Assembly: GCA_963746335.1 (NCBI GenBank)
Contig: CAVVAK010000009.1
Span: 244,157 to 308,156, forward strand
Source of the DNA: an uncultured Actinomycetota bacterium
GTDB taxonomy: Bacteria; Actinomycetota; UBA4738; HRBIN12
Direction: 5' to 3'
Length of the DNA: 64,000 nt
Shown here: positions 9,441-31,873 of the stretch, piece after piece
Layout of the letters: every line of letters starts with the position of its first letter
How positions within the stretch are numbered: the stretch's first letter is position 1
The notes under the pieces: model-generated
The model's input: only the letters and a program-made list of their open reading frames with translations
The model's database searches: none
Told to the model about the DNA's origin: nothing
Made by a program: the position numbers and the translations under genes

Positions 9441-9443
9441 CCG

Positions 9444-10424: not shown

Positions 10425-10425
10425 G

Positions 10426-11295
10426 TCAGTCGATCTCCGGCAGCTCGTCGAGCCAGGCCGTCCGGTAGCCGGTCTCGTCCCACATCACGGGGAAGAACGA
10501 CTCGTCCATCGAGACGTCGCCACGGCGCCGGTACCGCGAGTAGATGAGATCGACGTTGCGGTGGTGGAAACGTGCGTGGGACGGAAGCATGTGGGACACC
10601 AGCGCCATGCGAGCCACCGTGCCGCTCCTGTTCGGCTCGGAACCGTGCCACGTCAGGTTGTGGTGGAAGGCGCCGCCGCCGGGCTTCACGACGACCGGCA
10701 CGACCTCCATCTCGGCGTCGACCGGTTTCGCCGCCCTGACGCCCTCGAGCCAGTCCTCGGGCGCGTGGAACTGCGAGCGCTCCGGGGGTGTCCACGGCCA
10801 GTGGTTGGAGCCGCGAACGTAGGCGATCGGGCCGGCGTCGGCCTGCGTCTCATGGAGCGACATCCAGCAGGTGACCATCTCCGGCGGCACGAGGTAGTCG
10901 GCGTACGAGCCGTCCTGGTGGAAGCCGATCGCCTTCGTCCCCGGGGGCTTCCACAGGACGTTGTCCTGGAGGATCCGCACGCCTGGGTAGCTCATCAGCT
11001 GTGCGGCGAGCCGTCCGATCCTCGCGGACAGGACCTGCGCCGCGATCACGGTGTCCGCGCGCCACGCGTTGCAGAGCTGCCGGGTGCGGTCCTCGGGATC
11101 CCGGCCCTTGACCCAATTGACCTCGTCCGGCTTGATCCCCGTCTCGTACTCGCCGTCGAAGAGGCGGAGGTAGCGCTCCTCCAGCAGCTCCCGTGCCTTG
11201 TCGGAGATCAGGCCCTCCTCCACGACGAGGAACCCGTCCCGTTGGAAGGTCTCCACCTGCTCGGGTGTGAAGGATTCGACGAGGCGGCCCATCAC
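10426..11295 (-). CDS. phytanoyl-CoA dioxygenase (PhyH) family Fe(II)/2-oxoglutarate dioxygenase
   Basis: 289 aa with F..DGFLVV at the N-terminus, the FHQDGSY His-x-Asp motif and a distal HxxW/HGS region. The start (GTG 11295 or ATG 11292) overlaps the stop of the upstream gene. Confidence 0.8.
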   Translation of the reverse strand: MMGRLVESFTPEQVETFQRDGFLVVEEGLISDKARELLEERYLRLFDGEYETGIKPDEVNWVKGRDPEDRTRQLCNAWRADTVIAAQVLSARIGRLAAQLMSYPGVRILQDNVLWKPPGTKAIGFHQDGSYADYLVPPEMVTCWMSLHETQADAGPIAYVRGSNHWPWTPPERSQFHAPEDWLEGVRAAKPVDAEMEVVPVVVKPGGGAFHHNLTWHGSEPNRSGTVARMALVSHMLPSHARFHHRNVDLIYSRYRRRGDVSMDESFFPVMWDETGYRTAWLDELPEID

Positions 11296-13640: not shown

Positions 13641-15043
13641 CAGCCTTTGGCCGCGGGCTCCTTGGACACCTGCTCGTCCGCCTCCTTGAAGAGCTGCTCG
13701 GCGAGCTCGCGCTTGCCCGCCGCGTCGAGCTTCTTGACCTCGTTCTCCACGGCCCGTCGGTTGTAGGACTGGTTCCAGTAGTCGAGCGACTCGAAGCCGA
13801 GGAGCACGGCTTTCCCGACGAATTGCCGCAGCACCTCGTTGGTCGGTCCCATCACCCAGCCGGCCTTGGCGTCACGCAGGTAGCGCTCGAGCTCCATGTC
13901 GCGCTTGTAGCCGGAACCGCCGCACGCGTGGAGCATCTTGTCGACGACGTGCGCGGTGTTCTTCGCAGCCACGAACTTGATCTGCCACGCCCAGTGGAGG
14001 AAGGTGCCGCGCGCGAGCTCGCCGGGGCCTGGGTTCACCGTGTTGTGCTCGGTCGCGCCGTCCATCGCCTGGGCGACGGAGAGCGTGAACAGCCGCGAGG
14101 CGTTGGTGTCCATGACGGCCTCGCCGACGTAATCCTGGATCGTGGGGTAGTCGGCGACCCGCAGCCCGACGTCCACGTGCTTCTTGCGGGTGGTGTGCCG
14201 CTTGGCGATGTCGATCGCCCCGAGGGCGAGCCCGTTCCACACCGACGAGGAGCCGACCAGGAACCAGGGATCGACGGATTCGTCGTTGGAGTTGGCGCCG
14301 TCGCCCGTCGGGCCGACGAGCTGCTCGGCGGGGATCTCGATGTTGTCGATCTCGATCGGCCCCGACTGGTTCCCTCGCAGCCCGAGCGCGTCCCACAGCG
14401 ACGGGTGCGCCTGGATGTGCTCGCCGTCCACGACGAACACGGAGAGATCGTCGTACCCGGTGAAATCGGGACTCGTCGTCTGTACGACGTAGAAGTCGGC
14501 GAACCCACCCGACGTCGTCCATGAGGCCTTCTTCCGGACCTTGAATCCGCCGTTGGAGCGCTCCGCGCCCGACGAGATCGGGTACCAGAAGTGGGAGCCC
14601 GTCTCGGGGTCGGAATAGGAGAGGGTGCCGATCTTGCCGGAGTTCAGCGGTCGGATGTACTTGTCGACGAGCTCGGGGGTGGCGCGAAGCATGATCGCGT
14701 TCACGGCGCCGATGTGCATCACGTAGCACATCGCGGTGGAGGCGCAGCCGTAGCGTGCGATCGTCTCGCAGACCATCGAGTAGGCGACGTGGTCCTCGCC
14801 GAGGCCACCGTACTCCTCCGGCACGGTCAACCCAAGGAACCCGTGCTCGCCGAGGAGCTCCAGGTTGCGGCGAGGGAACATGAGCTCGTCGTCGAAACGC
14901 TTGGCGTTCGCGCGGAGCTCCTTCTCGCAGAGCTCGATCAGCGTGGCGCGGAGCTCCTTCTGCTTGTCGGTGTAGACCCAGTCCGGATCCCAGTCGTAGC
15001 CGAGTCCCCAGAAGGGCTCGGCACCCCACATCTTCTCGGTCAT
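13640..15043 (-). CDS. acyl-CoA dehydrogenase-fold flavoprotein with a non-canonical active site; possible flavin-dependent monooxygenase/oxidase
   Basis: ATG at 15043 with a GGAGG RBS (track ORF extended to 15124). It has the ACAD fold throughout. The usual IYEGT catalytic-Glu block reads VMGPT, and there is a C-terminal extension of about 60 aa. Confidence 0.75.
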   Translation of the reverse strand: MTEKMWGAEPFWGLGYDWDPDWVYTDKQKELRATLIELCEKELRANAKRFDDELMFPRRNLELLGEHGFLGLTVPEEYGGLGEDHVAYSMVCETIARYGCASTAMCYVMHIGAVNAIMLRATPELVDKYIRPLNSGKIGTLSYSDPETGSHFWYPISSGAERSNGGFKVRKKASWTTSGGFADFYVVQTTSPDFTGYDDLSVFVVDGEHIQAHPSLWDALGLRGNQSGPIEIDNIEIPAEQLVGPTGDGANSNDESVDPWFLVGSSSVWNGLALGAIDIAKRHTTRKKHVDVGLRVADYPTIQDYVGEAVMDTNASRLFTLSVAQAMDGATEHNTVNPGPGELARGTFLHWAWQIKFVAAKNTAHVVDKMLHACGGSGYKRDMELERYLRDAKAGWVMGPTNEVLRQFVGKAVLLGFESLDYWNQSYNRRAVENEVKKLDAAGKRELAEQLFKEADEQVSKEPAAKG

Positions 15044-17303: not shown

Positions 17304-17576
17304 GTGACCTTCCTGATCACGTGTCCCAACTGCGGGCCGCGAGAGGCCCTGGAGTTCGCCTTCGGCGGCGAGACGACGAGGCGCGCCGGACCGGCAGCGA
17401 CCGACCGTGAACTTGCCGCCTCCCTGTACTTCCGTCGCAACGTGGACGGATGGCAGATCGAATGGTGGGTGCACCAGAGCGGATGCCGCGCCTGGTTCCT
17501 CGCCGAGCGTCACACGACCACGAACGAGATCAGGCGCACCTATCGACCCGAGGATCGAGAGGCCGCGCCCGCGTGA
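17304..17576 (+). CDS. soxD: sarcosine oxidase delta-subunit family protein (N-methylglutamate dehydrogenase small subunit)
   Basis: 90 aa with a GTG start after a GAAGGAG RBS. CPNCGPR...EF and WWVHQSGCRAWF are typical SoxD blocks. The stop overlaps the next start (GTGA). Confidence 0.85.
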   Translation: MTFLITCPNCGPREALEFAFGGETTRRAGPAATDRELAASLYFRRNVDGWQIEWWVHQSGCRAWFLAERHTTTNEIRRTYRPEDREAAPA

Positions 17577-20383
17577 GTAGGCGGCTTCCGGAGCGCCTGG
17601 GCGAAGCGATCCGGCGCGACCGGCCGATCAGGTTCCGATTCGAACGCCGGACGATCCCCGCCTTCGAGGGGGACACGGTGGGATCGGCGCTCGCCGCCGC
17701 CGGGGTGTCGATCACGAGCCGCTCGTTCAAGTATCACCGGCCGCGCGGGCTGCACTGCATGACGGGCTCGTGCCCCAACTGCTTGATGCAGATCGACGGG
17801 ATCCCCAACGTCCGCGCGTGCACCGAGCCCGTGTGCGAGGGGATGCGGGTCGAGCGGCAGAACGCCTGGCCCTCGGTCGACCGTGACATCCACGGATGGC
17901 TCAACACGTTCTCGTTCATGATGCCGCCGGGCTTCTATTACAAGGTCTTCCAGCGACCTCGCTGGGCGTGGCCCTTCGTCGAGCCGTTCATCAGATCGAA
18001 GGCCGGGCTCGGCACGGTGCCGCACGAGCCCGATCACCGCCGCAGACGGAGGATCAACCTGCATCCGGATGTCCTGGTGATCGGCGCCGGTGCCGCCGGC
18101 CTCGCGGCCGCGACGGCGGCGGCGGATGCCGGAGCGACGGTCGTCCAGCTCGAGCAGGGCCGCGAGGCCGGCGGCCACCTCCTCGGCGATCCGAATGCAA
18201 GTCTCCGATCGCGGCTCGCGCGGGAAGCGCTCGAGTCGGGAGTCCGTCTCCTCCCGAACACGGCGGCGTTCGGGGTCTTCGGCGGGATGCTCGTGGCGGC
18301 CGCCGGTCCCGACGCCCTGTACCGGATCCGAGCGAAGCATCTGATCTTCGCGACGGGCGCCGTCGAGCAGTCCGCCGTCTTCCCCGGGAACGACCTTCCG
18401 GGGGTCATGTTGTCCTCCGGGGTGGAGCTGCTCCTCCATCGCTTCGGTGTGCTGCCCGGGCGACGCGCGGTCGTGCTCACCGCCGATAACGCCGGCTACT
18501 CGACCGCCTGGGCGCTGCGCGACGCAGGAGCCGAGGTGACCGTCGTCGACCTTCGCTCCGAGGGAGGCTGGCCGGAGGGGTTCCCCGTGGTGCCCGGCTC
18601 GACGATCGTCGCCGCGCACGGTCGCCGGCGGGTGACGGGGATCACCGCGGGGCCGCCGGGCGCCTCGTCCGGTCACAGGATCCGCTGCGACCTCGTCGTG
18701 ATCGCCTCCGTGCAGATGCCCTCGACCAACCTGTTGGCTCAGGCCGGTGCGCGGCTGGCCTTCAACGATACGAGGCAGGCCTTCCTCCCCGTCGACATGC
18801 CGGACCGGATGCATGCCGTGGGCGCCGTCGCGGGGACCGGGACACCGGAGGCGGCGATCGCGCAAGGGAAGCTCGCGGGGCTCGAGTCCGCCGCCGCGCT
18901 CGGCCACCATGTCGACCAGGCTGAGGTGACGGAGCTCCGCGCCGAAGCCGGTGCGGCCGGGGACCCGGTCGTCCTTCCGCCGGAGGCCTCGGCCGCCTCG
19001 GGGAAGCAGTTCGCGTGCCTGTGCATGGACGTCACGTCGAAGGAGCTGAAGACGGCCGCCGCCGAGGGGTTCGATTCGATGGAGCTCCTCAAGCGCTACA
19101 CGACGATCACGATGGGCCCGTGCCAGGGGAAGTCCTGCATGCTGTCATCACAGCGGCTGTGCGGCCAGGCGACCGGACGGTCCTTCGGGGAGACGAAGCC
19201 CACGACGGCGCGACCACCCTGGGTTCCCGTGGAGATGGGCACGCTGGCCGGCTCCCGCTTGACGCCTCGCAAGCAGACGACGATGCACGATCGGCATGCG
19301 GCGGCCGGAGCCGAGTTCATGTGGGCGGGGGATTGGCGAAGGCCGCACCACTACACGACCCCGGAGGCCGAGGTCGATGCGGTCCGGAACCGGGTCGGGC
19401 TGATCGACGTGAGCACCCTGGGCAAGTTCCGGATCAAGGGGCCCGAGTCGGTCGAGCTGCTAGAGCGCCTGTACCCGAGCCGATTCTCGGACCTCGCGGT
19501 GGGGAGGGTCCGCTACGGGGCGATGCTCAACGACGAGGGGGTGATCCTCGACGACGGCGCGGTCGTCCGACTGGCGGACGACGAGTTCTTCGTGACCGTG
19601 ACGACGGGCAACACGGCGGCGCTCGAGCGATGGATCACCTGGTGGAACGCCGACTGGCAGCTCGACGCCCGCGTGCTGAACGTGACCGGTGCCTTCGGCG
19701 CCCTCAACCTGGCTGGCCCCCGAGCGAGGAGCGTCATGGCCGCGCTCACCGACGCCGACGTGTCCGGGGACGCCTTGCCGTACATGTCCGCCACGAAGAT
19801 GGACGTCGCCGGTGTGCCGTCTCTGGTGCTGCGGATCGGCTTCGTGGGCGAGATGGGCTACGAGATCCATTTCCCCTCGGCGTACGGCGAGCACCTGTGG
19901 GACACCATCATCGACACGGGGCGCGTCGGCGGGATCGCCGCGTTCGGCCTCGAGGCCCAGCGGATCTTGCGTCTCGAGAAGCAGCACATCCTCGTGGGCC
20001 AGGACACCGATGCCGAATCGGATCCGTTCGAGGTCGGACTCGGCTGGATGGTGAAGGAGGACAAGGAGGACTTCCTGGGCCTGCGCGCGTTGCGGGACCT
20101 GAAGCAACGGGGACCAGAAGAGCGCCTGGTGGGGTTCACGGCCCCCGACCGGTGGCTCCCGCCGGAAGGAGCGTCGGTGGTTCGTGACGGCGCCTGGGTC
20201 GGTCGGGTGACGTCGGCGAGACGGAGCGCGGCGGTCGGGAGCGTCATCGGCCTCGCCTGGGTCCCCGCAGACACGGCCTCCGATGGGAGCACGTTCGAGA
20301 TCCAGTTCGGGGGCAGCCACACGACGGGAACGGTGCGCACCGCTCCGTTCTACGACCCTCGCGGCCAGAGGTTGCGGTCATGA
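17573..20383 (+). CDS. soxA: sarcosine oxidase alpha-subunit family protein (N-methylglutamate dehydrogenase large subunit, with THF-binding GcvT-like C-terminus)
   Basis: GTG at 17573 (track ORF 17450 trimmed). The N-terminal F.G...DTVGSALAAAG 2Fe-2S-like region is followed by the VLVIGAGAAGLAAA Rossmann motif. The C-terminus is GcvT-like (GLIDVSTLGKFRIKG, GFVGEMGYEIHF). Confidence 0.9.
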   Translation: MSRRLPERLGEAIRRDRPIRFRFERRTIPAFEGDTVGSALAAAGVSITSRSFKYHRPRGLHCMTGSCPNCLMQIDGIPNVRACTEPVCEGMRVERQNAWPSVDRDIHGWLNTFSFMMPPGFYYKVFQRPRWAWPFVEPFIRSKAGLGTVPHEPDHRRRRRINLHPDVLVIGAGAAGLAAATAAADAGATVVQLEQGREAGGHLLGDPNASLRSRLAREALESGVRLLPNTAAFGVFGGMLVAAAGPDALYRIRAKHLIFATGAVEQSAVFPGNDLPGVMLSSGVELLLHRFGVLPGRRAVVLTADNAGYSTAWALRDAGAEVTVVDLRSEGGWPEGFPVVPGSTIVAAHGRRRVTGITAGPPGASSGHRIRCDLVVIASVQMPSTNLLAQAGARLAFNDTRQAFLPVDMPDRMHAVGAVAGTGTPEAAIAQGKLAGLESAAALGHHVDQAEVTELRAEAGAAGDPVVLPPEASAASGKQFACLCMDVTSKELKTAAAEGFDSMELLKRYTTITMGPCQGKSCMLSSQRLCGQATGRSFGETKPTTARPPWVPVEMGTLAGSRLTPRKQTTMHDRHAAAGAEFMWAGDWRRPHHYTTPEAEVDAVRNRVGLIDVSTLGKFRIKGPESVELLERLYPSRFSDLAVGRVRYGAMLNDEGVILDDGAVVRLADDEFFVTVTTGNTAALERWITWWNADWQLDARVLNVTGAFGALNLAGPRARSVMAALTDADVSGDALPYMSATKMDVAGVPSLVLRIGFVGEMGYEIHFPSAYGEHLWDTIIDTGRVGGIAAFGLEAQRILRLEKQHILVGQDTDAESDPFEVGLGWMVKEDKEDFLGLRALRDLKQRGPEERLVGFTAPDRWLPPEGASVVRDGAWVGRVTSARRSAAVGSVIGLAWVPADTASDGSTFEIQFGGSHTTGTVRTAPFYDPRGQRLRS

Positions 20384-21006
20384 GGACGTCGATCAGGCGC
20401 TCGCCCGCCGCCCGACTGTCGGCGCTCCGCGGGGCGGTGTTCGTGGAGGAGGCCGGGTGGGAGATCCCGGCCTCCTACGGGGACGACGCCGCCGAGCGCG
20501 CTGCCATCCGCGATCGCGTGGCGATCGCGGACGTCACCGCGCGCGCGAAGGTGGACGTGCGCGGCCGACTGCCGCAGGCGCTTCCCCTGCCGGCGGCGAC
20601 CGTCATCGCTCGCATCTCGGCGGAATGGGTCGTGGTGTTCGGAGGGCCGGATGCGGAGACGAGGCTGCTCCGGGCGATCGAACCCGTGGCCGGTTCCGGC
20701 GCGATGGTGACGGACGTGACCCACCTGTTCGCGGGGTTCGCACTGCTCGGGCCCGAGGTGCCCGCCGTGCTGGAGAGGACCACCTCGTGGGATCCCACGA
20801 CCCTCGCTCCCGGGGAAGCGACGGGAGCGCCGATCGCGGAGGTCCGGGCGTTGATGGTCCGCCGGGATCTCGAGGTGCCCGTGATCGAGATGTACGTCGC
20901 CACCGAGTTCGCGCGCTACGTCTGGGAGACCCTCTCGGGCGTCGTCACGGGGCTCGGCGGTGCACCGGTGGGATGGCAGGCGCTGCGCATGGAGGGCTGG
21001 AGCTGA
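20380..21006 (+). CDS. soxG: sarcosine oxidase gamma-subunit family protein
   Basis: 208 aa, in the position and of the size of SoxG. Its start overlaps the alpha stop (ATGA) and its stop overlaps the next start. Confidence 0.75.
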   Translation: MRTSIRRSPAARLSALRGAVFVEEAGWEIPASYGDDAAERAAIRDRVAIADVTARAKVDVRGRLPQALPLPAATVIARISAEWVVVFGGPDAETRLLRAIEPVAGSGAMVTDVTHLFAGFALLGPEVPAVLERTTSWDPTTLAPGEATGAPIAEVRALMVRRDLEVPVIEMYVATEFARYVWETLSGVVTGLGGAPVGWQALRMEGWS

Positions 21007-22254: not shown

Positions 22255-23112
22255 GTGATGGCCACCGCCGCGCAGCCGCTCCGTCGGAACACCTCGAGCG
22301 TGCACGTCGTCGCGCTGAACGACGGCGTCCGGTCCGAGCGGACGGACACCCTTGCCGCGGAGGAGCCCCTCGAGATCCGGGTACAGGGTCCGGGGCAGGA
22401 GCTGGCGTCGGTGGCCGTGACGATGCGGACGCCGGGGGGTGACTTCGAGCTCGCCGTGGGATTCCTCTTCACCGAGGGCTTGATAGTCCCCGGGGACGTC
22501 AGCCGGGTCGCCTACTGCGACACCCTGCCGGGTGAAGACCAGCAGTACAACATCGTGTCGGTCACGCTGAACCGTCCGTTCGACTTCGACCGGTTGAAGC
22601 GGAACTTCTACGCCACGTCGTCGTGCGGCGTGTGTGGGAAGGCGGCGCTGGACGACATCGAGGTGCGATGCGCTCCCGTCGCGACGGGCACCAGGGTGGC
22701 CGGAGCGACACTCCTCGCGCTTCCGGCGGCTCTCCGCAAGGCGCAGAAGGTCTTCGAGCGGACGGGCGGCCTGCACGCGGCGGGGCTCTTCTCCGCCGAA
22801 GGGGAACTCGTCTCCGTCCGCGAGGACGTCGGTCGTCACAACGCGGTCGACAAGGTCGTCGGGGAGCAAGTGCTGGCCGGCCACGTGCCGCTCGCCGACC
22901 ACGTCCTCCAGGTGAGTGGGCGCCTCTCGTTCGAGATCGTGCAGAAAGCCGCCGTGGCAGGTATCCCGATCGTGAGCGCCGTGAGCGCGCCGTCATCCCT
23001 CGCGGTCGAGGCCGGCGAGCGGTTCGGCATGACGCTGGTCGGTTTCGTCCGCGACGAGCGTCTGAACGTCTACACGCATCCGGAGCGCCTGATCACGCCC
23101 TCGCTCAGTTGA
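22255..23112 (+). CDS. fdhD: formate dehydrogenase accessory sulfurtransferase FdhD
   Basis: 285 aa with TPGGDFELAVGFLFTEG, SSCGVCGK, GGLHAAG, EDVGRHNAVDKV and SGRLSFEIVQKA. Confidence 0.9.
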   Translation: MMATAAQPLRRNTSSVHVVALNDGVRSERTDTLAAEEPLEIRVQGPGQELASVAVTMRTPGGDFELAVGFLFTEGLIVPGDVSRVAYCDTLPGEDQQYNIVSVTLNRPFDFDRLKRNFYATSSCGVCGKAALDDIEVRCAPVATGTRVAGATLLALPAALRKAQKVFERTGGLHAAGLFSAEGELVSVREDVGRHNAVDKVVGEQVLAGHVPLADHVLQVSGRLSFEIVQKAAVAGIPIVSAVSAPSSLAVEAGERFGMTLVGFVRDERLNVYTHPERLITPSLS

Positions 23113-23839
23113 CCGCGACGCCGACGAGGCTGCCGACCCCGTACGTGATGGCCGCCGCCACCACGCCGATCCCGAGCATCCTCGCTCCCGAGAACAGCAC
23201 GCCTCGGCCGGTGAGGATGGTCATCGCGCCTCCCACGGCGAACAACGTCAACGCCGAGATGCCCGCCGACACGACGACCGCCGTGTCACCCGAGGTGAAC
23301 AGGAACGGAAGCAGGGGGACGATCGCCCCGATCGAGAACATCACGAAGGAAGAGCCGGCCGCCGCCCAGGGCGAGCCGAGTCCCCCTTCGATATCGATCC
23401 CGAGCTCCTCTCGTGCGTGCGTCGCGAGGGCGACCTGGGGATCCTTCATCAGCGCCACCGAGATCTGCTCCGCGGTCTTCGGATCGATGCCCTTCGCCTC
23501 GTAGAGCCGCGCCAGCTCGCGCTGCTCTTCCTCCGGCAGCGTCGCGATCTCGTGCGCTTCCTTGTGGATCAGCTGTTCGTAGACCTCGCGCTGCACCTTC
23601 ATCGAGACGTACTCGCCCGCCCCCATCGAGAACGCGCCGGCGAGCAGGCCGGCGAACCCGGCGATCACGACCACCTTGCCGGCGACCCCGGAGCCCGCGA
23701 CGCCGAAGATCAACGAGAGGTTGGAGACCAGGCCGTCGTTCATCCCGAAGATCGCGGCGCGGAGCGCGCCGGACTTGCTGCTCGACGCGTCCTGTTCGCC
23801 ACCGACCGGTCCCGGGTGAGGCACGATCCGTGACGTCAT
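23105..23839 (-). CDS. VIT1/CCC1-family metal (Fe/Mn) transporter
   Basis: LRAAIFGMNDGLVSNLSLIFGVAG and five hydrophobic helices. The start is uncertain: ATG 23839, ATG 23875 or GTG 23911. Confidence 0.75.
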   Translation of the reverse strand: MTSRIVPHPGPVGGEQDASSSKSGALRAAIFGMNDGLVSNLSLIFGVAGSGVAGKVVVIAGFAGLLAGAFSMGAGEYVSMKVQREVYEQLIHKEAHEIATLPEEEQRELARLYEAKGIDPKTAEQISVALMKDPQVALATHAREELGIDIEGGLGSPWAAAGSSFVMFSIGAIVPLLPFLFTSGDTAVVVSAGISALTLFAVGGAMTILTGRGVLFSGARMLGIGVVAAAITYGVGSLVGVAVN

Positions 23840-23955
23840 CCCGCACACAGTAGACCGAGGCGGCTCGACGCCCATCCCGTGGCTCTTCGCGCCGCCTACA
23901 ATCGCTCCCACGGTCGGAGGGTCCGATCGGCCATGGAACGGGAAAAGGAGCGCCG

Positions 23956-25893
23956 ATGCCGAACGGGCTCACGCGACTCACCGAGCCGATGGTGCGCGAG
24001 GACGGGGAGCTGCGCGTCGCGACCTGGGAGGAGGCCCTCGACCGGGCCGCCGAGGGGCTGCGCGCCGCCACGGACCGCCACGGCGGCAAGGGGGTCGGCC
24101 TGTTCAGCTGCTCCAAGGCCACGAACGAGATGAACTTCGCGGCACAGAAGTTCATCCGCCAGGCCCTGGGCAGCAACAACATCGACAGCTGCAACCGCAC
24201 CTGACACGCACCGAGCGTGGTCGGTCTGGCCACGGTCTTCGGTGCCGGAGGCGGCACCAGCTCATACGAAGAGGCGGAGCACACGGACCTCATGCTGCTG
24301 TGGGGTTCGAACGCTCGGGCTGCTCACCCGATCTTCTTCCACCATGTCCTGAAGGGGATCCATGACGGCATGCGCTTGATCGTGGTCGACCCTCGCCGAA
24401 CGGAGTCGGCCGAGTGGGGCGATCTCTGGCTCGGGCTCGACGTCGGGACCGACATCGCCCTGTCCAACGCGATGGCTCGCGAGATCATCGTGAGCGACCT
24501 GCACCACCACGCGTTCATCGATCTCGCCACGACCGGCTTCGAGGATTACGCGGCCTCGGTCATGGACTGGACGCTCGAGCGAGGTGAGGAGGTCACCGGC
24601 GTGCCGGCCGAGGTGATCCGCGAGGTGGCGCACGCCTACGCCAAGGCCGATCGCGCGATGATCTGCTGGACCCTCGGGATCACGGAGCACCACAACGCCG
24701 CCGACAACGTGCTCGCGTTGATCAACCTGGGGCTGCTGACGGGGCACGTGGGGACGTACGGATCCGGGATGAACCCGCTCCGCGGCCAGAACAACGTCCA
24801 GGGCGGCGGCGATATGGGGGCGATCCCCAACAAGCTCACCGGGTTCCAGGACATCGAGACCGACACCGAAGCCCGCGAGCGCTTCGAGCACGAATGGGGC
24901 GTGTCGATCGAGCCCAAGAGGGGCTGGCACCTCTCCCAGATGTTCGAGGCGATGGAGGAGGGCGACCTCACCGCGCTGTACGTCATCGGAGAGAACCCGG
25001 CTGCCTCCGAGGCCGACAACCAGAAGACCCACAAGCTGCTGGCGAACCTCGACATCTTGATCGTGCAGGACATCTTCATGACACAGACAGCGAAGATGGC
25101 CGACGTGGTGCTGCCCGCCGCGAACTCAGCCTTCGAGTCCGAAGGGACCGTGACGAACAGCGAACGACGTGTGCAGCGCGTGCGTCCGGCGCTGGTGCCT
25201 CCGGGGAACGCGAAGGACGACATCTGGATCATCGGCGAGATCGCGAAGCGGCTCGGCCACGACTGGGGACATCCCACGGCGCACGACGTGTGGGAGGAGG
25301 TCCGCAGGCTCTCACCGATGCACGCCGGGATGTCGTGGGAACGGATCGAGGAGCTCGGCGGGATCCAATGGCCCTGCCCGGACGAGTCGCACCCAGGGAC
25401 GAAGTTCCTCCATGCCCGCCTGTGGTCGGAGGATCCGGCGGAGCAAGGGATGAAGGCGCCGTTCTCCGTCGTGCTCTACGAGCCTCCGGTGGACGAGTTG
25501 GATGAGGACTATCCGTTCCGCCTGACCACTGGTCGGCGGCTCGACTCGTACAACACGGGCGTGCAGACGGGCGGGTACACGTCGCCGCTCCGTCGGGAGG
25601 AGACGCTCGACATCTCTCCCGAGGACGCCGAACGGCTGGGCGTGCGTGAGGGGGAGCGGGTACGGATCGCGTCTCGCCGGGGCGAGGTCGAGGCCCCCGT
25701 CCGGCTGGCGCTCGGCCTGCGGCCCGGCCTCCTGTTCATGACGTTGCACTTCCCGGACCAGGTCGACATCAACAACCTGACGATCGACGCGTGGGACCCG
25801 AAGTCGGGGACCGCGGAGTTCAAAGCCACGGCGGTGCAGGTGGAGAAGCTGCCGGCGGCGGCCATCGCGACCGGTCACGGGGACCGCGAGTGA
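23956..25893 (+). CDS. fdhA: formate dehydrogenase catalytic Mo/W-bis-PGD subunit (C-terminal two-thirds of a split FdhA), with selenocysteine encoded by UGA at 24202..24204
   Basis: Track ORFs 23956..24204 and 24217..25893 are in the same frame. Read through, the sequence is NIDSCNRT-U-HAPSVVGLATVFG, which matches the FdhF active-site block (U/C)H.PSV.GL. An AAGGAG RBS precedes 23956. Confidence 0.85.
24208..24245 (+). promoter_or_regulatory. putative bacterial SECIS hairpin
   Basis: The lower stem GCACCGA (24208-24214) pairs with UCGGUGC (24239-24245). The upper stem CGUGGUC (24216-24222) pairs with GGCCACG (24228-24234), including one G-U pair. The apical loop is GGUCU. The GGUCUG Gly-Leu codons are at the same offset from UGA as in the E. 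coli fdhF SECIS. Confidence 0.7.
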
Positions 25894-25903
25894 CGGAGGT
25901 GGC

Positions 25904-27766
25904 GTGGACCTCCATCTGATGGACGCCGCCCCGACGGACGCGGAGCGGTCCGCGGTCGACGGGTTCCTGGGGCTCCCGGAGACCGGCTGGGAGGGAGGTC
26001 TCGAGCGATCCGCACGAGACCTCCGGGTCGTGCGAGGCGGTCGCGAGGCACGCGACCAGCGTCACCTCCTGCTGCCGGCGCTGCACGCCCTCCAATCGAG
26101 CGTGGGATGGATCAGCCGCGGAGGCCTCAACTACGTGTCCCAGCGGCTCTCGGTGCCGCCGGCGGACGCGTACGGCGTGGCCACGTTCTACGCGATGTTC
26201 AGCGTCGAGGAACGCCCGGCGAACGTCGTCCACGTCTGCGACGACCTCGCATGCCGCGGGGCGGGTGGGCTGGCGCTCGTCGAGGAGCTGGCGCGCGACG
26301 CCGCGCCGGAGGGCGCCGATGCAGGCGGGTGGACCTGGGTACGGTCGCCCTGTCTCGGCATGTGCGAGCAGGCGCCGGCCGTCTTCGCGCAACGAGCGGG
26401 ACGGCCTGAGGTGGCCCTCGGCGAGGCGACCCGCGCGACCGTGGACGCGATCGTGGCGCCTGACTCCGACGTGGCCTGCGCCGGCGGGGTCGGGGCGCCG
26501 CAGACGGTCGCGCCCGAAGGGCGCGACCGTCTGCGGCTCCTGCGACGGGCCGGCGTCGTCGATCCGTCATCGATCGACGACTATCGCGCCCACGGCGGGT
26601 ACGAGGCTCTCCGAACCGCGATCCAGATGGGACCGGAGGCCACGATCCAGGCCGTGACGGACGCGAAGCTCCTGGGGCGGGGGGGCGCCGCGTTCCCGAC
26701 CGGGGTGAAGTGGCAGGCGGTCACCACCCAGCCGGTGCGGCCCCACTTCGTGATCTGCAACGCCGACGAATCCGAGCCGGGGACGTTCAAGGATCGGGTC
26801 GTGATGGAGCAGGATCCGTTCGCCGTCGTCGAGGCACTGACCGTGGCGGGGTTCGCGTGCGGGGCGGAGAAGGGATTCGTCTACATCCGAGGCGAATATC
26901 CGCTGGCGACCGAGCGGCTCGAGCACGCGATCGCCGAGGCGAGGCATCACGGCTTCCTCGGCGAGGATGTCATGGGCCACGGGGTCGCGTTCGACATCGA
27001 GCTCCGTCGTGGGGCCGGCGCCTACATCTGTGGCGAGGAGACCGCGCTGTTCAACTCGATCGAGGGCAAGCGCGGGGAGCCGCGCAACAAGCCGCCGTTC
27101 CCGGTGACCCACGGGGTCTTCGGCAAGCCGACGGCGATCAACAACGTCGAGACACTGATCAACGTGCTGGAGGTGCTCCGGCACGGCGCGGAGGCGTACG
27201 CCGCGATCGGAAGCGAGGGATCCACGGGTCCTCGGTTGTTCTGCCTGTCCGGGCAGGTGGAGCGGCCCGGCGTCTACGAGGTGGAGCACGGCGCCACCCT
27301 CGGAGAGCTGATCGAGCTCGCCGGCGGCATCCGAGCGGGCGGATCTCTCAAGACGGTGCTCCTCGGCGGCGCAGCGGGCGGCTTCGTCGGGCCGGACATG
27401 CTCGACGCGAAGCTCACGTTCGAGGACGCTCGGGAGGGCGGATACACGCTCGGATCGGGCGTGATCATGGTCTTCGACGAGAGCGCGGATCTGGTGGATC
27501 TCTGTCTTCGCATCGCTCGTTTCTTCCGCGACGAGAGCTGCGGTCAATGCGTCCCGTGCCGGGTCGGCACGGTCCGGCAGGAAGAGGCGCTCCACCGGCT
27601 CGTCGCCGGCACGACGATCGGCTCGGCGCGAGACGAGCTCGCCCTGATCGACGAGGTGGCCCAGGTGATGCGGGACGCCTCGATCTGCGGGCTCGGCCAG
27701 ACGGCGGCGAACGCCGTGCAGTCGGCGATCTCGCGGCTCGGCGTCTTCGATGGAGGTGCCGCGTGA
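25904..27766 (+). CDS. NAD-linked formate dehydrogenase diaphorase subunit, a NuoE-like / NuoF-like fusion
   Basis: 620 aa with a GTG start after GGAGGTGG. The N-terminus has CDDLAC...CLGMC (NuoE 2Fe-2S). The remainder has GGAAFPTGVKW, CNADESEPGTFKDR, GAGAYICGEETAL and ESCGQCVPCR...ICGLGQ (NuoF FMN/NADH/4Fe-4S). Confidence 0.9.
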   Translation: MDLHLMDAAPTDAERSAVDGFLGLPETGWEGGLERSARDLRVVRGGREARDQRHLLLPALHALQSSVGWISRGGLNYVSQRLSVPPADAYGVATFYAMFSVEERPANVVHVCDDLACRGAGGLALVEELARDAAPEGADAGGWTWVRSPCLGMCEQAPAVFAQRAGRPEVALGEATRATVDAIVAPDSDVACAGGVGAPQTVAPEGRDRLRLLRRAGVVDPSSIDDYRAHGGYEALRTAIQMGPEATIQAVTDAKLLGRGGAAFPTGVKWQAVTTQPVRPHFVICNADESEPGTFKDRVVMEQDPFAVVEALTVAGFACGAEKGFVYIRGEYPLATERLEHAIAEARHHGFLGEDVMGHGVAFDIELRRGAGAYICGEETALFNSIEGKRGEPRNKPPFPVTHGVFGKPTAINNVETLINVLEVLRHGAEAYAAIGSEGSTGPRLFCLSGQVERPGVYEVEHGATLGELIELAGGIRAGGSLKTVLLGGAAGGFVGPDMLDAKLTFEDAREGGYTLGSGVIMVFDESADLVDLCLRIARFFRDESCGQCVPCRVGTVRQEEALHRLVAGTTIGSARDELALIDEVAQVMRDASICGLGQTAANAVQSAISRLGVFDGGAA

Positions 27767-28722
27767 GCCAGGCGGTGCCGCTCGACGCACCGAAGCGGCT
27801 GATCGACGTCGAGATCGACGGGCGAGTTGTCCGCGTGCCGGAGGGTGCCACGATCCTGGATGCGTGCCGGGCCGAGGGCGTGGACACGCCCACGATGTGC
27901 TACGCGGACAATCTCACGCCGATCAATGCCTGCCGGGTGTGCGTCGTGGAGGTCGAGGGCTCTCGCGTCCTCGTGCCGGCATGCTCCCGCCGCGCCGAGC
28001 CGGAGATGAAGGTGAAGACCGACACGGAACGGGTGCGGCACTCGCGCAAGCTCGTGATGGAGTTCCTCGACTCGACCGTCGACATCACGCTCGCATCGAC
28101 GGACTGGCGTCGATGGGCGGGCGAGTATGGAGCGGACCCGTCCCGGTTCGGCGTCGCGATGGAACCGATGGAGGCAGGGGAGCGCGACGAGCGACCGCCC
28201 GGGCACCACCACGACCCCGACCCTGCGGTGGCGGAGACCGTGGCGCAGCCGGTGAAGGTCGACAACGACCTGTACGTCCGTGACTACGAGCGGTGCGTGC
28301 TCTGCTACAAGTGCGTCGAAGCGTGCGGGGTGGACGCGCAGAACACGTTCGCGATCGCCGTCGCGGGGCGCGGATTCGACGCGAGGATCTCCACCGAGTT
28401 CGCGGTGCCGCTGGACGAGTCGGCGTGCGTGTACTGCGGGAACTGCATCGGGGTCTGCCCGACCGGGGCGCTGATGTTCAAGTCGGAGCACGACATGCGC
28501 GCCGAGGGGACGTGGGACGAGGACGCGCAGTCGGTCACGAACACGATCTGTCCGTATTGCGGGGTGGGTTGTGAGCTCGAGGTCCACGTCCAGGACAACG
28601 AGATCGTGAAGGTGTCGTCTCCGGAGGACCACTCCGTCACGAGTGGCCACCTCTGCATCAAGGGCCGGTTCGGGTTCGCCTACGTGCAGCGCCGAGGGGA
28701 ACGCGACGGCCGGGGGCGGTAG
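27763..28722 (+). CDS. Fe-S subunit corresponding to the N-terminal third of FdhA/NuoG (2Fe-2S, 4Fe-4S ferredoxin motifs and the Molybdop_Fe4S4 CxxCxxxC cluster)
   Basis: GTG at 27763 overlaps the previous stop (GTGA). It has IDGRVVRVPEGATILDA, CRVCVVEV, CVLCYKCVEAC and CVYCGNCIGVCP, then CPYCGVGCELEV and HLCIKGRFGF. It ends exactly where the 23956 product begins in full-length FdhA. Confidence 0.85.
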   Translation: MSQAVPLDAPKRLIDVEIDGRVVRVPEGATILDACRAEGVDTPTMCYADNLTPINACRVCVVEVEGSRVLVPACSRRAEPEMKVKTDTERVRHSRKLVMEFLDSTVDITLASTDWRRWAGEYGADPSRFGVAMEPMEAGERDERPPGHHHDPDPAVAETVAQPVKVDNDLYVRDYERCVLCYKCVEACGVDAQNTFAIAVAGRGFDARISTEFAVPLDESACVYCGNCIGVCPTGALMFKSEHDMRAEGTWDEDAQSVTNTICPYCGVGCELEVHVQDNEIVKVSSPEDHSVTSGHLCIKGRFGFAYVQRRGERDGRGR

Positions 28723-28738
28723 CGAGGTCGCGGGCGTC

Positions 28739-29305
28739 GTGCTCGCGGGTGGACGGTCCCGTCGATTCGGTCGCGACAAGCTCGCGGAGGAGTACCGAGG
28801 CACACCCCTCCTCCACCATCCGGTCTCGCGTCTGTTCGAGGTCTGTGATCGCGTGGTCGTGGTGCTCTCACCGGACGCGGAGGAGCCTCCCATGCCGGCG
28901 GGGACATCGGTGGTGTTCGCTCGCGATGCGATCGAGGATGAGGGACCGCTCCGCGGCCTGTCGGCCGGACTCGAGGTCGCGGACGCGGAGTGGACCGTCC
29001 TCGTCGGCGGCGACATGCCGGATCTGCAACCCCCTGTGCTCTTGGAGATGCTTCGCGCCGGGCTGGAGACGGGGGTCGTCGCCGTCTCGCTCTCGGACGG
29101 AGGGCAGGAGAGGCCGCTCCCGTGTGTGCTCCGCACCACGCCGGCGGCCGAGGCGGTCCGTGCGCTCCTCGAGGCCGGGCGCCGGAGCCTGCGGGAGCTG
29201 CTCGGGGCCGTCTCGGCCACCGTGATCGACGAACCGACCTGGACCGCCCTGGACCCCGAGCGACGCACGCTGATCGACGTCGATGCGCCCTCCGACCTGC
29301 CGTAG
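28739..29305 (+). CDS. mobA: molybdenum cofactor guanylyltransferase
   Basis: LAGGRSRRFG..DK, PLRGL and VLVGGDMP motifs. The start is uncertain: GTG 28739, or ATG 28643, which would overlap the upstream gene by 80 nt. Confidence 0.75.
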   Translation: MLAGGRSRRFGRDKLAEEYRGTPLLHHPVSRLFEVCDRVVVVLSPDAEEPPMPAGTSVVFARDAIEDEGPLRGLSAGLEVADAEWTVLVGGDMPDLQPPVLLEMLRAGLETGVVAVSLSDGGQERPLPCVLRTTPAAEAVRALLEAGRRSLRELLGAVSATVIDEPTWTALDPERRTLIDVDAPSDLP

Positions 29306-29327: not shown

Positions 29328-30164
29328 GTGCCGCATGAGCCCTACATGCTCGGGTCGCTCGAGGTCGTGCCGCTGTGCGACGGGTGGGCGCCGTTGCCCC
29401 TCGACGACGAGATGCCCGGGCGCGACGTCGACTGGGATGAGGAGCGCGCACGGTTCCCGTGGGCGTTCCCGTCCGACGATGCGAGCAGCTGGGCGTGGCA
29501 CGTGCACTCGTTCCTGGTTCGCCACCGGGACGGGCTCGTGATGGTCGATACCGGCATCGGGCGCTTCGGACGCCCGCCGTACGACGTCTCGAGCGCGATC
29601 GACGAGGAGCTCCGCGCGGCTGCCGTATCGCCCGGCGATATCGGTCACGTCGTGTTGACCCATCTGCACGCCGATCATTCCGGAGGCGCATGCCTGCCCG
29701 ACGGGACCCCGAGGTTCCCGAACGCCCGCTACCACGTCCATCCGGACGACTGGTCGTTCTTCGCGGAGCACCGAACGCCGGACGACTTCACCGGGCGCTC
29801 CGCGATGACCGTCATCGAGGAGCTCGGGATGCTCGACCTCGACGCACCGGACCATGAAGTGCTGCGCGGGGTGTCCCTCCGGCACGCACCGGGTCATACG
29901 CCCGGGCACCGCGTGGTGCAGCTCGACGACGAGAACGCAACGTTGCTCCTGACGGGCGACCTCCTCCACGTGCCGCCGCAGGTGGCGGATCCGGACTCGC
30001 CTTCGAACCACGACGAGGACCCGGAGGTCGCGGCTCGGGCGCGATCCCGCCTCGTCGATCAAGCCCGGACGGCGGGATGGGCCGTCGGCGTCTCGCACTT
30101 CGCACGACCCTTCGGGCGCGTCGAGACCGACGGCTGGGCCCCAAGAGAGGGCGGTCTCCGCTAG
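29328..30164 (+). CDS. MBL-fold metallo-hydrolase
   Basis: 278 aa with VLTHLHADHSGG (HxHxDH) and a distal HAPGHTPGH. Confidence 0.8.
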   Translation: MPHEPYMLGSLEVVPLCDGWAPLPLDDEMPGRDVDWDEERARFPWAFPSDDASSWAWHVHSFLVRHRDGLVMVDTGIGRFGRPPYDVSSAIDEELRAAAVSPGDIGHVVLTHLHADHSGGACLPDGTPRFPNARYHVHPDDWSFFAEHRTPDDFTGRSAMTVIEELGMLDLDAPDHEVLRGVSLRHAPGHTPGHRVVQLDDENATLLLTGDLLHVPPQVADPDSPSNHDEDPEVAARARSRLVDQARTAGWAVGVSHFARPFGRVETDGWAPREGGLR

Positions 30165-31873
30165 CCGTCCCGGTGGGACTCCAGCTCGTCGAGCCGCTCC
30201 GTGGCCACGCCGTGGGCGGCGTCGGATGCGGCCTCGTGGCCGGTGATGGCGCGGAGGAACTCGTCGCGGTCCAGCGCCAGGAGCCTGCTCTCGATCGTGG
30301 TGACGACGGTCGCCGTCCTCGGGACGTCGCGGATCAGGGCGATCTCCCCGAACGATCCGCCCGGGCCGAGCGTCGTGACACTTCGCCCACCTTCCCGGAC
30401 TTCCAGCGAACCTTCGACGATCGCGTAGAAGCGATCGCCCGCCTCGCCCTGCCTGATCACGACGGTTCCTTCCGGCACCGAGACCGGGATGAGGTTCCTC
30501 GCGAGACGCTCGAGCATCGGTGCGGGGAGCGGCGCGAACATCCGCGTCGATCGCAGGAGCGCCATCTCCTCCGACGGGATCCGCACCCCGACGTCGAGCG
30601 CGATGAGGGCTCGGCGACCCAGCAGGGCCACCGACGGCAGGAGCACGCCGGCGATCAACAGGGTCCACCGAGGGCCGATCGCCACGACGAGGAGCGAGGC
30701 AAGGAGCGACCCGACACCTTCGCCGGCCATGTAGAGCGACTCCAGCACGCCGAACGCTCTCGAGAGCTGCTTGTCCGGTATCAGCCGCTGCAGCATCACG
30801 CGTCCGTTGACGTCGGCGAGCGCAGCACCCGCTCCACTCATCGCCAGGAAGACTCCGGCCGCGGCGGGTTGGGCGGCGATCCCGGCGATCGAGAGCCCGC
30901 TCCACGAGACCCCCCACCGGAACGAGCGGGACGATCGCCACCGCGCCGCGACGCCGATCGCGAGCGCCGCTCCCACCACGGCACCGATGCCGATCGAGGC
31001 GGTCAGGAAACCGACACCGGCGTCGCCGGTACCGACGACGTCGAAGGCCAGGATCACGATCAGCACGTCGACGAAGCCCATTTGGACCATCGCGAGCCCC
31101 ATCGTTGCGACCAGGAGCAGCGACCGGCGGTCGCGCGCGACGGCTCGGACCCCGCCCACCGCCTCGGATGCGACCACGCGGACGCCGGAGATCCCGCCAT
31201 CGTGCGCGGGCTCGGTGCGGACCCGGATCGAGATCACGCTCACGGTGCCGAGGATGAGCATCACGGCGAGTGCGGCATCCACCACACCCGGCCCCGAGAG
31301 GGAACCGGGAGCGAGACCCATCAGTCCTCCCGCGAGGAGTGGACCGAGCAGAGAGCTGAAGCTCTCGAGGACGCTGCTCGCGGCGTAGGCACTCGAGAGC
31401 TCCTCCGGCGTTCGAGCCAGGCGGGGAAGGAGAGAGGCGTGCGTGGGACGGACGAGCGTGATCGCCCATCCGGCCGAGGTGGCCGATGCGTAGACGAACG
31501 GAGCTGGTGCGTCGATGAGCAGGGCGACGGCGGCCACGGCCGTCATCGCGGCGAGCGAGGCATAGGCGAAGACGAGGACTCGCTCGCGGCGGTGCCGATC
31601 CCCGAGCACGGATCCGATCGGCGCGAGGATCGCGGCGGGGATCAGCTGGAGGAGGCTCACCAAGCCGACCATGACGCTGCCGCCGTCCTGGTAGGCGTAC
31701 ACGATCAGCGCGATGAACGCCGCCCATTCGGTGATGGTGAACGCGAGGTAGGCGGCGAGCGCCTTCGCGATATCGGGCGATCGGAACGAGCTCCCGAGCG
31801 CCGTCAGCGACGTCCGGACGTCGGCGAGGACACTCCTGACCGCCGATCCCTTCTTCGGTCGTTCCTCCGCCAC
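30161..31873 (-). CDS. MFS transporter fused to a C-terminal cyclic-nucleotide-binding domain
   Basis: 570 aa. About 12 TM helices are followed by VPEGTVVIRQGEAGDRFYAIVEGSLEV...FGEIALIRDVPRTATVV. Confidence 0.85.
   Translation of the reverse strand: MAEERPKKGSAVRSVLADVRTSLTALGSSFRSPDIAKALAAYLAFTITEWAAFIALIVYAYQDGGSVMVGLVSLLQLIPAAILAPIGSVLGDRHRRERVLVFAYASLAAMTAVAAVALLIDAPAPFVYASATSAGWAITLVRPTHASLLPRLARTPEELSSAYAASSVLESFSSLLGPLLAGGLMGLAPGSLSGPGVVDAALAVMLILGTVSVISIRVRTEPAHDGGISGVRVVASEAVGGVRAVARDRRSLLLVATMGLAMVQMGFVDVLIVILAFDVVGTGDAGVGFLTASIGIGAVVGAALAIGVAARWRSSRSFRWGVSWSGLSIAGIAAQPAAAGVFLAMSGAGAALADVNGRVMLQRLIPDKQLSRAFGVLESLYMAGEGVGSLLASLLVVAIGPRWTLLIAGVLLPSVALLGRRALIALDVGVRIPSEEMALLRSTRMFAPLPAPMLERLARNLIPVSVPEGTVVIRQGEAGDRFYAIVEGSLEVREGGRSVTTLGPGGSFGEIALIRDVPRTATVVTTIESRLLALDRDEFLRAITGHEAASDAAHGVATERLDELESHRDG

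Follow-up and report, generated by a model that had tools for sequence, protein, structure and literature searches.

The stretch examined here is a 64-kb window of an uncultured Actinomycetota bacterium of the HRBIN12 lineage (GenBank assembly GCA_963746335.1, contig CAVVAK010000009.1, positions 244,157 to 308,156). It contains three adjacent genes which likely encode one cytoplasmic NAD+-linked formate dehydrogenase (FDH) of the FdsABG/Fdh1AB type, with an alpha chain made as two proteins. The first gene codes for the C-terminal part of the alpha subunit (C-part), the predicted carrier of the molybdenum- or tungsten-containing bis-pyranopterin guanosine dinucleotide cofactor (Mo/W-bis-PGD). 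It is followed by the gene for a NuoE-NuoF fusion (NuoEF) and by the gene for the N-terminal part of the alpha subunit (N-part), an iron-sulfur (Fe-S) protein. The domain for FS0, the Fe4S4 cluster proximal to the pterin, is encoded on the N-part, 1.9 kb downstream of the C-part, and not on the pterin polypeptide. To our knowledge, cluster and pterin are located on one chain in every characterised Mo/W-bis-PGD member with FS0, and the Fe4S4 mini-domain forms the N-terminus of the catalytic domain in every characterised relative. The split enzyme most likely works like FDHs of the FdsABG/Fdh1AB type but would lack two traits by which these are defined, namely an undivided alpha chain and the cluster A4.

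Division of the alpha chain between two proteins

The TIGR01591 Fdh-alpha profile aligned at positions 1–50 with residues 261–310 of the N-part (55.7 bits) and at positions 52–672 with residues 6–629 of the C-part (640.1 bits). Neither protein passes the cutoff of 666.25: the C-part alone is below it, while the sum for the N-part and C-part, 695.8, is above. The FdsA chain of Rhodobacter capsulatus (6tg9_A) is matched by N-part residues 14–310 at positions 25–305 (E 1e-42) and by C-part residues 7–630 at positions 308–932. In comparison with FdhF, the C-part corresponds to residues 61–689. A fused paralog, present in a Limnocylindrales metagenome-assembled genome (MAG; locus L080), aligns with the N-part along residues 20–293 and with the C-part along residues 293–921. 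An earlier note on this DNA, made from the letters alone, had claimed that the alpha subunit is split at an exact breakpoint. The profile, the sequence of the solved structure and the fused paralog agree with this claim. Along the profile, FdsA and the fused paralog the halves are complementary and no segment is lost or doubled at the junction; the only extras are a short basic tail of the N-part and a five-residue head of the C-part.

The reading frame of the C-part is interrupted only once, by a TGA codon within the motif DSCNRT-U-HAPSVVG, and its ATG lies 6 nt behind the ribosome-binding site AAGGAG. The product contains the Pfam domains Molybdopterin (PF00384; residues 7–432, E 6e-68) and Molydop_binding (PF01568; residues 521–625, E 1e-27). 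No Fe-S domain was detected in the C-part by Pfam, and its translated sequence holds no cluster motif. The active-site motifs CNRT-U-HAPSV and NPLRGQNNVQG, the latter including the Arg, align with the motifs of solved FDHs. In the NuoEF fusion, the domains 2Fe-2S_thioredx (residues 50–182), Complex1_51K, SLBB, and NADH_4Fe-4S were recognized (TIGR01959 nuoF_fam, 455 bits), and its PDB matches include FdsB (6tg9_B/6vw7_B) and Fdh1B (7e5z_B; residues 224–610). The N-part comprises Fer2_4 (residues 12–88), a Fer4 dicluster domain (residues ~172–237), and Molybdop_Fe4S4 (PF04879; residues 257–309). The latter ends with LCIKGRFGF, and the stop codon follows 16 residues on. The earlier note was also right in describing a catalytic chain devoid of its own Fe-S cluster and a HoxU/NuoG-like partner, which bears the proximal cluster and a conserved Lys according to Pfam, the profile and the alignment of 123 N-parts. 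The coordinates of these and further features are listed in Table 1.

Table 1. Positions of the split FDH genes and other features in the 64-kb window (residue numbers refer to the N-part).
Feature	Position	Strand	Details
C-part, catalytic Mo/W-bis-PGD subunit	23956..25893	+	645 codons including selenocysteine (Sec) 83
NuoE-NuoF fusion, diaphorase	25904..27766	+	620 aa; [2Fe-2S], flavin mononucleotide (FMN)/NAD site, N3-type [4Fe-4S]
N-part, Fe-S subunit	27763..28722	+	319 aa; [2Fe-2S], two ferredoxin-type [4Fe-4S], FS0 [4Fe-4S], Lys300
[2Fe-2S] ligands of N-part	C46, C57, C60, C74		
Two [4Fe-4S] ligands of N-part	C178, C181, C184, C188; C222, C225, C228, C232		
FS0 ligands of N-part	C263, C266, C270, C298		
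UGA read as Sec	24202..24204	+	Mo/W ligand, His next; aligns with Cys/Sec ligand of solved FDHs
Hairpin resembling a selenocysteine insertion sequence (SECIS)	24208..24245	+	Stem 24217–24222/24228–24233, loop GGUCU 24223–24227
fdhD, FDH accessory sulfurtransferase	22255..23112	+	Pfam FdhD-NarQ, E 7e-69; NCBIfam NF001943, 311 bits (cutoff 269)
mobA-like molybdenum cofactor guanylyltransferase	28643..29305	+	NTP_transf_3, E 1e-31; TIGR02665 best NCBIfam match; start codon uncertain
VIT1-family (iron/manganese transporter-like) gene	23105–23911	-	Between fdhD and C-part
Sarcosine oxidase set, heterotetrameric type	alpha 17450–20383; gamma-like 20380–21006; beta-like ending 22220	+	
GcvT-type aminomethyltransferase-DUF1989 fusion	11292–13640	-	
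Major facilitator superfamily (MFS) transporter	30161–31873	-	Fused to C-terminal cyclic-nucleotide-binding domain
Thiamine pyrophosphate (TPP) riboswitch RF00059	43328–43439	+	55.6 bits, barely over gathering score

The 123 aligned N-parts share exactly 16 invariant Cys residues and the invariant Lys300, and they end a median of 15 residues beyond KGRF. The His/Cys3 ligands of the A4 cluster are absent from all 123 N-parts, which possess a Cys-free insert instead; a match to PF10588 is likewise missing. In the FDH of R. capsulatus, electrons pass along bis-MGD (bis-molybdopterin guanine dinucleotide), A1, A2, A3, A5 [2Fe-2S], B6, and FMN, and A4 is located outside this route from bis-MGD to FMN, where the two halves of the dimer meet (PMC7171172). 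The split enzyme thus retains precisely the on-pathway clusters. Lys44 of Escherichia coli FDH-H is needed for retention of the [4Fe-4S] cluster and for activity (PMC12176258). The equivalent Lys is K300 of the N-part, while the pterin contacted belongs to the C-part. The Cys-free insert (residues ~95–165) also includes a His-His-His stretch (N-part residues 148–150; window positions 28204–28212), which is conserved in about three quarters of the 123 family members and deleted in the remainder.

The stop codon of NuoEF and the GTG start of the N-part overlap in GTGA (27763–27766), with the ribosome-binding site GGAGG ahead of the N-part, and this junction is translationally coupled. At the other junction, a gap of 10 nt separates the stop codon of the C-part from the start of NuoEF, which lies behind GGAGG, so the overlapping stop and start codons described earlier are confined to the boundary of NuoEF and the N-part. 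All three genes are preceded by a separate ribosome-binding site (AGGAG/GGAGG).

Two further possibilities were considered and rejected. Split-intein trans-splicing would need far longer intein halves than the N-part tail (median 15 residues) and the C-part head (~5 residues) could provide. An upstream extension of the C-part was suggested by long in-frame stretches in some relatives; these are random open frames in GC-rich DNA, and neither Fe-S motifs nor N-part similarity were found in them.

Conservation of the split, gene order and selenocysteine

The N-part is represented by more than 120 metagenomic clusters with 78–96% identity, all 308–342 aa long. Genome scans revealed relatives in hundreds of species-level genomes, with at least 560, at least 271, and at least 574 confirmed stretches per scan. 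Judged by record titles, the hosts span more than ten phyla. These include Actinomycetota (Acidimicrobiia, Thermoleophilia, Streptosporangiales, Streptomyces), Acidobacteriota, Chloroflexota, Planctomycetota, Verrucomicrobiota, Gemmatimonadota, Eisenbacteria, Dormibacterota, Armatimonadota, Myxococcota, Gammaproteobacteria, and Spirochaetia. The parts share 52–97% identity within the split family. The nearest single-chain proteins with both FS0 and pterin domains, namely the fused L080 paralog and FdhF-like genes from four genomes, display 44–46% identity to the C-part. The nearest full-length proteins (≥900 aa) to the N-part display 36–43% identity in a representative-library search, the top matches of which were mostly fragments.

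Wherever a fetched locus holds all three parts, these are arranged on one strand as C-part, NuoEF, N-part. This applies to all 118 such loci of the first two sets of relatives, with a few contigs entered twice, and to all 70 such loci of Streptomyces. Many of the relatives' loci are located on contigs of 0.5–10 Mb, including complete chromosomes and megabase long-read contigs. The view that the permuted order is not a simple disruption, put forward in the earlier note together with a proposal to survey relatives for the same split, agrees well with this pattern: the order is shared by all of these loci, many of them on megabase contigs of independent assemblies, and the split defines a cross-phylum family and not a peculiarity of one genome.

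Only metagenomic proteins, and no isolates, were present among the matches to a Bryobacteraceae N-part; the isolates were retrieved by the genome scans. An operon with a Cys codon in place of the TGA, followed by fdhD, occurs in Streptomyces violaceusniger, S. iranensis, S. malaysiensis, S. canus, S. bluensis, and dozens more. Further isolates with the Cys codon belong to the genera Sphaerisporangium, Streptosporangium, Acrocarpospora, Herbidospora, Nonomuraea, Nocardiopsis, Streptomonospora, and Marinactinospora. Ilumatobacter nonamiensis YM16-303 possesses a Sec-type C-part; its contig ends just downstream of this gene, and no Fe-S domain was found in the ~6 kb upstream. A complete operon (60–67% identity) was also seen on a contig labelled Candidatus Micrarchaeaceae archaeon (L104), and a C-part fragment (70% identity) on one of Candidatus Saccharimonadales (L085). 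Both contigs are probably mis-binned, since these lineages have tiny genomes.

Public soil and permafrost sequencing runs contained 9–13% of the 31-mers of the window, which points to related strains and not to the source, and to a family that is common. Metatranscriptome contigs from soil, ice, and sediment, 88–99% like the window, cover all three genes; one of 585 nt crosses the NuoEF/N-part junction and one of 634 nt crosses the UGA. They stem from relatives, that is, from other strains, with possible DNA carry-over.

The codon of the metal ligand is TGA in all 65 relatives of the first set and TGC or TGT in Streptomyces and allies, where 20 distinct sequences with a Cys codon in the Sec column were found. 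The ligand is thus either Sec or Cys in all relatives. The TGA is followed by the SECIS-like hairpin, with a stem of six pairs beginning 13 bases past it. In an alignment of 33 sequences, the apical helix was 92% paired; one pair appears as CG in 24 sequences and as GC in 9, with none unpaired, and every shuffle and slid control scored lower on paired cells. All 178 distinct TGA sequences possess the GGUCU loop, and 176 of these 178 form the complete stem of six pairs. The Cys-codon sequences have the loop in 0 of 20 cases, form 3–5 of the 6 pairs and never use GGU, although the encoded peptide is nearly unchanged. Since loop and stem accompany the TGA and are lost with the Cys codon, the hairpin is tied to UGA decoding, and the reading of the TGA as Sec in the earlier note is well founded. 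In E. coli fdhF, the UGA is likewise followed by a hairpin with an apical loop of the GGUC type. The public C-part proteins are fragments of ~555 aa, as gene callers break at the TGA.

Two loci are of additional relevance to the Sec/Cys variation. In an Anaerolineaceae MAG (L056:442–1840), the C-part is immediately preceded by a tRNA-SeC gene on the minus strand and by selD (TIGR00476, 330 bits). In Actinoallomurus iriomotensis NBRC 103681 (L274:105–6879), two intact tandem C-part genes are followed by one NuoEF, one N-part, and then fdhD. The first C-part has a TGA with a SECIS and the second a TGC without a SECIS. This suggests a pair of Sec and Cys isoenzymes on one electron-transfer module, with the split allowing an exchange of catalytic subunits.

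The proposed enzyme and competing explanations

In the FDH outlined above, the C-part would be a Sec-containing catalytic subunit with the pterin cofactor, the Sec-His pair and the Arg, but with no Fe-S cluster. The N-part would act as a HoxU-like Fe-S protein ending in a mini-domain of ~55 residues for the Fe4S4 cluster, with the conserved Lys. This mini-domain is predicted to dock non-covalently on the C-part and to complete its domain I. Formate electrons would pass from the Mo/W-pterin to FS0, crossing a subunit interface, then within the N-part through both [4Fe-4S] clusters of the ferredoxin type and through the [2Fe-2S] cluster, and finally via the N3-type [4Fe-4S] cluster and FMN of NuoEF to NAD+. 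FdhD and MobA are the probable maturation factors of the cofactor. A simple formate:NAD+ oxidoreductase is most likely, because the on-pathway clusters are kept and NuoEF lacks the bifurcation ferredoxin domain.

A further idea is that the split is adaptive and modular, with different catalytic subunits served by one Fe-S/flavin module and with an operon order that couples expression of this module to selenium. Failed Sec insertion at UGA codon 83 would then yield only a harmless cofactor-free peptide of 82 residues, and transcriptional polarity would switch off synthesis of the Fe-S/flavin subunits. We regard this idea as a tentative one, more doubtful than not.

A published analysis describes FdsA as a cytoplasmic FDH to which an Fe-S domain like that of iron-only hydrogenases has been fused (PMC10100899). 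The cut in the split family is located ~55 residues downstream of the HydA-like/FdhF joint, which argues for a later fission rather than a relic of the state before fusion. Most simply, the permuted order would have arisen if an ancestral [nuoEF-fdsA] unit was duplicated in tandem and the outer pieces, namely the first nuoEF-N segment and the last C segment, were then lost, leaving C-part, nuoEF, N-part in one step. We infer such an origin from the present arrangement of the genes.

Several observations weigh against the interpretation of the three genes as one enzyme of FdsABG/Fdh1AB type. In many Chloroflexota, 0.6–5 kb of unrelated genes separate the C-part from NuoEF and the N-part. The catalytic gene of these organisms is a separate transcription unit, so co-transcription of C-part and NuoEF is not obligatory. 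Two N-parts stand apart from the other genes: one in a Chthonomonadaceae MAG (L034:8001–9011), where the flanking 8 kb on each side contain neither C-part nor NuoEF, and one in Streptomyces aureus JCM 12605 (L329:5001–5849), with neither within 5 kb upstream. They may be orphans or belong to dispersed operons. In addition, the similarity of the C-part to chains of the FdhA/FdhF type (505 and 484 bits) slightly exceeds that to FdsA (425 bits), which makes a chimeric origin possible. An AlphaFold2 model of the N-part, built with a 54-sequence alignment, reached a mean predicted local distance difference test (pLDDT) score of 52.7, with Fe-S regions below 50, and is unusable for a fold search. 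Also, no tRNA was found in the window by the tRNA scan.

The wedged genes in Chloroflexota (L039:3612–5995, L056:4260–5960, and also L053, L069, and L063) include those for a glyoxalase, a DUF1304 protein, a methyltransferase, a DPBB-domain protein, and one open reading frame on the opposite strand. The neighbours of the L034 N-part code for a glycosyltransferase, a DinB-family protein, a 3-keto-disaccharide hydrolase, and a selenium-binding protein of the SBP56 type.

The Chloroflexota loci and the lone N-parts of L034 and L329 would fit a pair of separate enzymes, namely a C-part acting alone or with another partner, and an independent HoxEFU-like diaphorase made of NuoEF and the N-part. Natural modules of the HoxU-like kind, as in HoxEFU and HydABC, are indeed found with various catalytic partners. 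Yet the N-part ends in Molybdop_Fe4S4, a domain which is absent from HoxU and has no known role except beside a pterin. The two halves abut to the residue, K300 matches the Lys of FDH-H that stabilises cluster and pterin, and electrons would have no evident way out of a C-part that lacks FS0. Furthermore, the three genes co-occur wherever enough sequence was fetched, and we consider two separate enzymes unlikely. A related question is whether the complex is an electron-bifurcating FDH (Bfu/HydABC type) or one coupled to ferredoxin or H2. Its best NuoEF matches in the PDB are indeed subunits of the NfnB/HydB/HoxF type from bifurcating enzymes, and the JGI name of the N-part is 'HndD'. However, NuoEF ends at residue 620, just past NADH_4Fe-4S, and its PDB matches stop at ~610 of the query and, on HydB-type chains of roughly 600 residues, at ~515. 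It therefore lacks the additional C-terminal ferredoxin domain with 2x[4Fe-4S] that bifurcating enzymes possess. No hydrogenase genes are present within the operon, and aerobic soil actinomycetes, Acidobacteriota, and bacteria of a similar kind make up most of the hosts, which makes this type of coupling very unlikely.

The identity of the C-part could also be questioned, as it might have another MopB activity, such as that of an assimilatory nitrate reductase or a YjgC-like oxidoreductase. It remains at 640 bits, below the TIGR01591 cutoff of 666, scores 408 bits with NasC and 357 bits with NasA, and is labelled 'YjgC' by JGI. The missing score corresponds to the first 51 profile positions, which are supplied by the N-part. 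The best solved relatives are all FDHs, the Sec/Cys-His dipeptide and the RGQNNVQG arginine motif, which we take to be FDH signatures, are present, and FdhD, an FDH-specific sulfurtransferase, adjoins in nearly all loci; a different activity appears highly improbable. The chance that the genes are remnants of a pseudogenised or misassembled fdsA without function is negligible. The TGA makes gene callers break the C-part, and a single genome could in principle be misassembled, but the same split, breakpoint, and order recur throughout the 118 and 70 independent loci. Moreover, the cluster ligands are invariant, as are the catalytic residues, every gene is equipped with a separate start and ribosome-binding site, the SECIS hairpin covaries, and the relatives are transcribed. 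A functional FDH with a divided alpha chain is the explanation we favour.

Relation to known systems and gene neighbourhood

A close parallel is FdsABG(D) of R. capsulatus and Cupriavidus necator (6TG9/6TGA, 6VW7), which combines a HoxU/NuoG-like Fe-S region and a MopB domain with a NuoF-/NuoE-like diaphorase. It shares with the split enzyme the on-pathway clusters FS0/A1, A2, A3, and [2Fe-2S] A5, as well as an FdhD-type maturation factor (FdsC). The differences are an alpha chain of two polypeptides, cut just past the Fe4S4 domain, the fusion of NuoE and NuoF, the absence of the A4 His/Cys3 cluster, and the gene order; also, no FdsD was seen. The usual order of fds genes is fdsG-B-A. Characterised NAD+-dependent FDHs use a Cys ligand, and only Cys-type enzymes are listed among them in a 2026 review of metal-dependent FDHs (PMC13397495), whereas the enzyme of the window has Sec. 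The tungsten-containing FDH1 of Methylorubrum extorquens (Fdh1AB; 7E5Z, 7VW6), a soluble NAD+-linked enzyme of an aerobe, has a fused NuoE-NuoF beta subunit and an alpha subunit that matches both halves. Unlike the split enzyme, its alpha subunit is a single chain of 989 aa with a Cys ligand, and its genes are not permuted.

ForCE of Bacillus subtilis (YjgC/YjgD; 8RQZ) possesses the same N-terminal Fe-S region, there fused to MopB. ForC consists of one chain and uses a Cys ligand; its partners are ForE and menaquinone, and a NuoEF diaphorase is lacking (PMC8808070, PMC13397495). The N-part further resembles HoxU of NAD+-reducing [NiFe] hydrogenases (NF005745, 132 bits), a small Fe-S subunit which joins a flavoprotein of the NuoEF type to a catalytic subunit with a gene of its own. 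The split FDH would follow this hydrogenase-like logic, but in contrast to HoxU the N-part carries an appended Molybdop_Fe4S4 domain that must complete the fold of a molybdoenzyme. FdhF (FDH-H) of E. coli shares the Sec-His active site, and its Lys44 is the equivalent of K300. However, it has its own FS0 domain (residues 1–60) and no NuoG-like or NuoEF partners.

A precedent for a MopB chain divided between two polypeptides is provided by FwdB/FwdD of formylmethanofuran dehydrogenase. A C-terminus replaced by a separate subunit is also noted for M. wolfeii (PMC7171172). In FwdB/FwdD the C-terminal cap is separate and FS0 stays on the catalytic chain, whereas here the N-terminal FS0 domain is separate and fused to an Fe-S protein.

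The genome of the Limnocylindrales MAG L080 harbours, besides the split operon, a canonical fused Sec-FdhA of 950 aa with UGA at codon 377. It is accompanied by a 1071-aa protein with NuoE-/NuoF-like regions and a long C-terminal extension (both within 8473–14537, minus strand). This fused system would be a different FDH, possibly of the NADPH or bifurcation type.

No description of an FDH with the FS0 domain on a separate subunit was found in the full-text literature searched, the coverage of which was limited, so that a prior report is possible. The split is also absent from the 2026 review (PMC13397495) and from a survey of the MopB superfamily (PMC10100899). The survey filters demand at least 95% coverage and an Fe-S motif (PMC10100899). 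They would discard the split family, and the formate-oxidising capacity of soils may therefore be under-counted. In public annotations, the pieces appear as 'YjgC', 'HndD', '2Fe-2S iron-sulfur cluster-binding protein', and 'formate dehydrogenase'.

A large natural family with FS0 and pterin apart would mean that the Fe4S4 mini-domain is an autonomous, dockable unit. Models of cofactor insertion assume that cluster and pterin are on one chain. The family would also offer a natural test of the first electron-transfer step, and of the conserved Lys, across an interface. The same arrangement may help to exchange catalytic modules on a shared NAD+-reducing chassis, with relevance for CO2-to-formate biocatalysis. 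The family appears to be widespread in soil bacteria and Streptomyces, and among its members are Sec-dependent NAD-linked enzymes from lineages that are considered aerobic. All this is directly testable because cultured hosts of the Cys type exist.

Genes for cofactor maturation flank the operon. The fdhD gene is the immediate upstream neighbour of the C-part in close relatives, for example L001, and the immediate downstream neighbour of the N-part in Streptomyces. The VIT1-family gene between fdhD and the C-part of the window is thus a local insertion, as judged from L001, the closest relative. The mobA-like gene comes after the N-part in the closest relatives as well. Further upstream, the window contains the sarcosine oxidase set and the GcvT-type fusion gene. 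This one-carbon (C1)-generating neighbourhood is consistent with formate arising from C1 units freed by demethylation, and it lends support, although not proof, to a formate-oxidising role of the enzyme.

The Rfam and tRNA scans of the 64-kb window revealed nothing relevant to the operon; the former detected a TPP riboswitch. Also, an MFS transporter with a cyclic-nucleotide-binding domain at its C-terminus is encoded downstream of the mobA-like gene.

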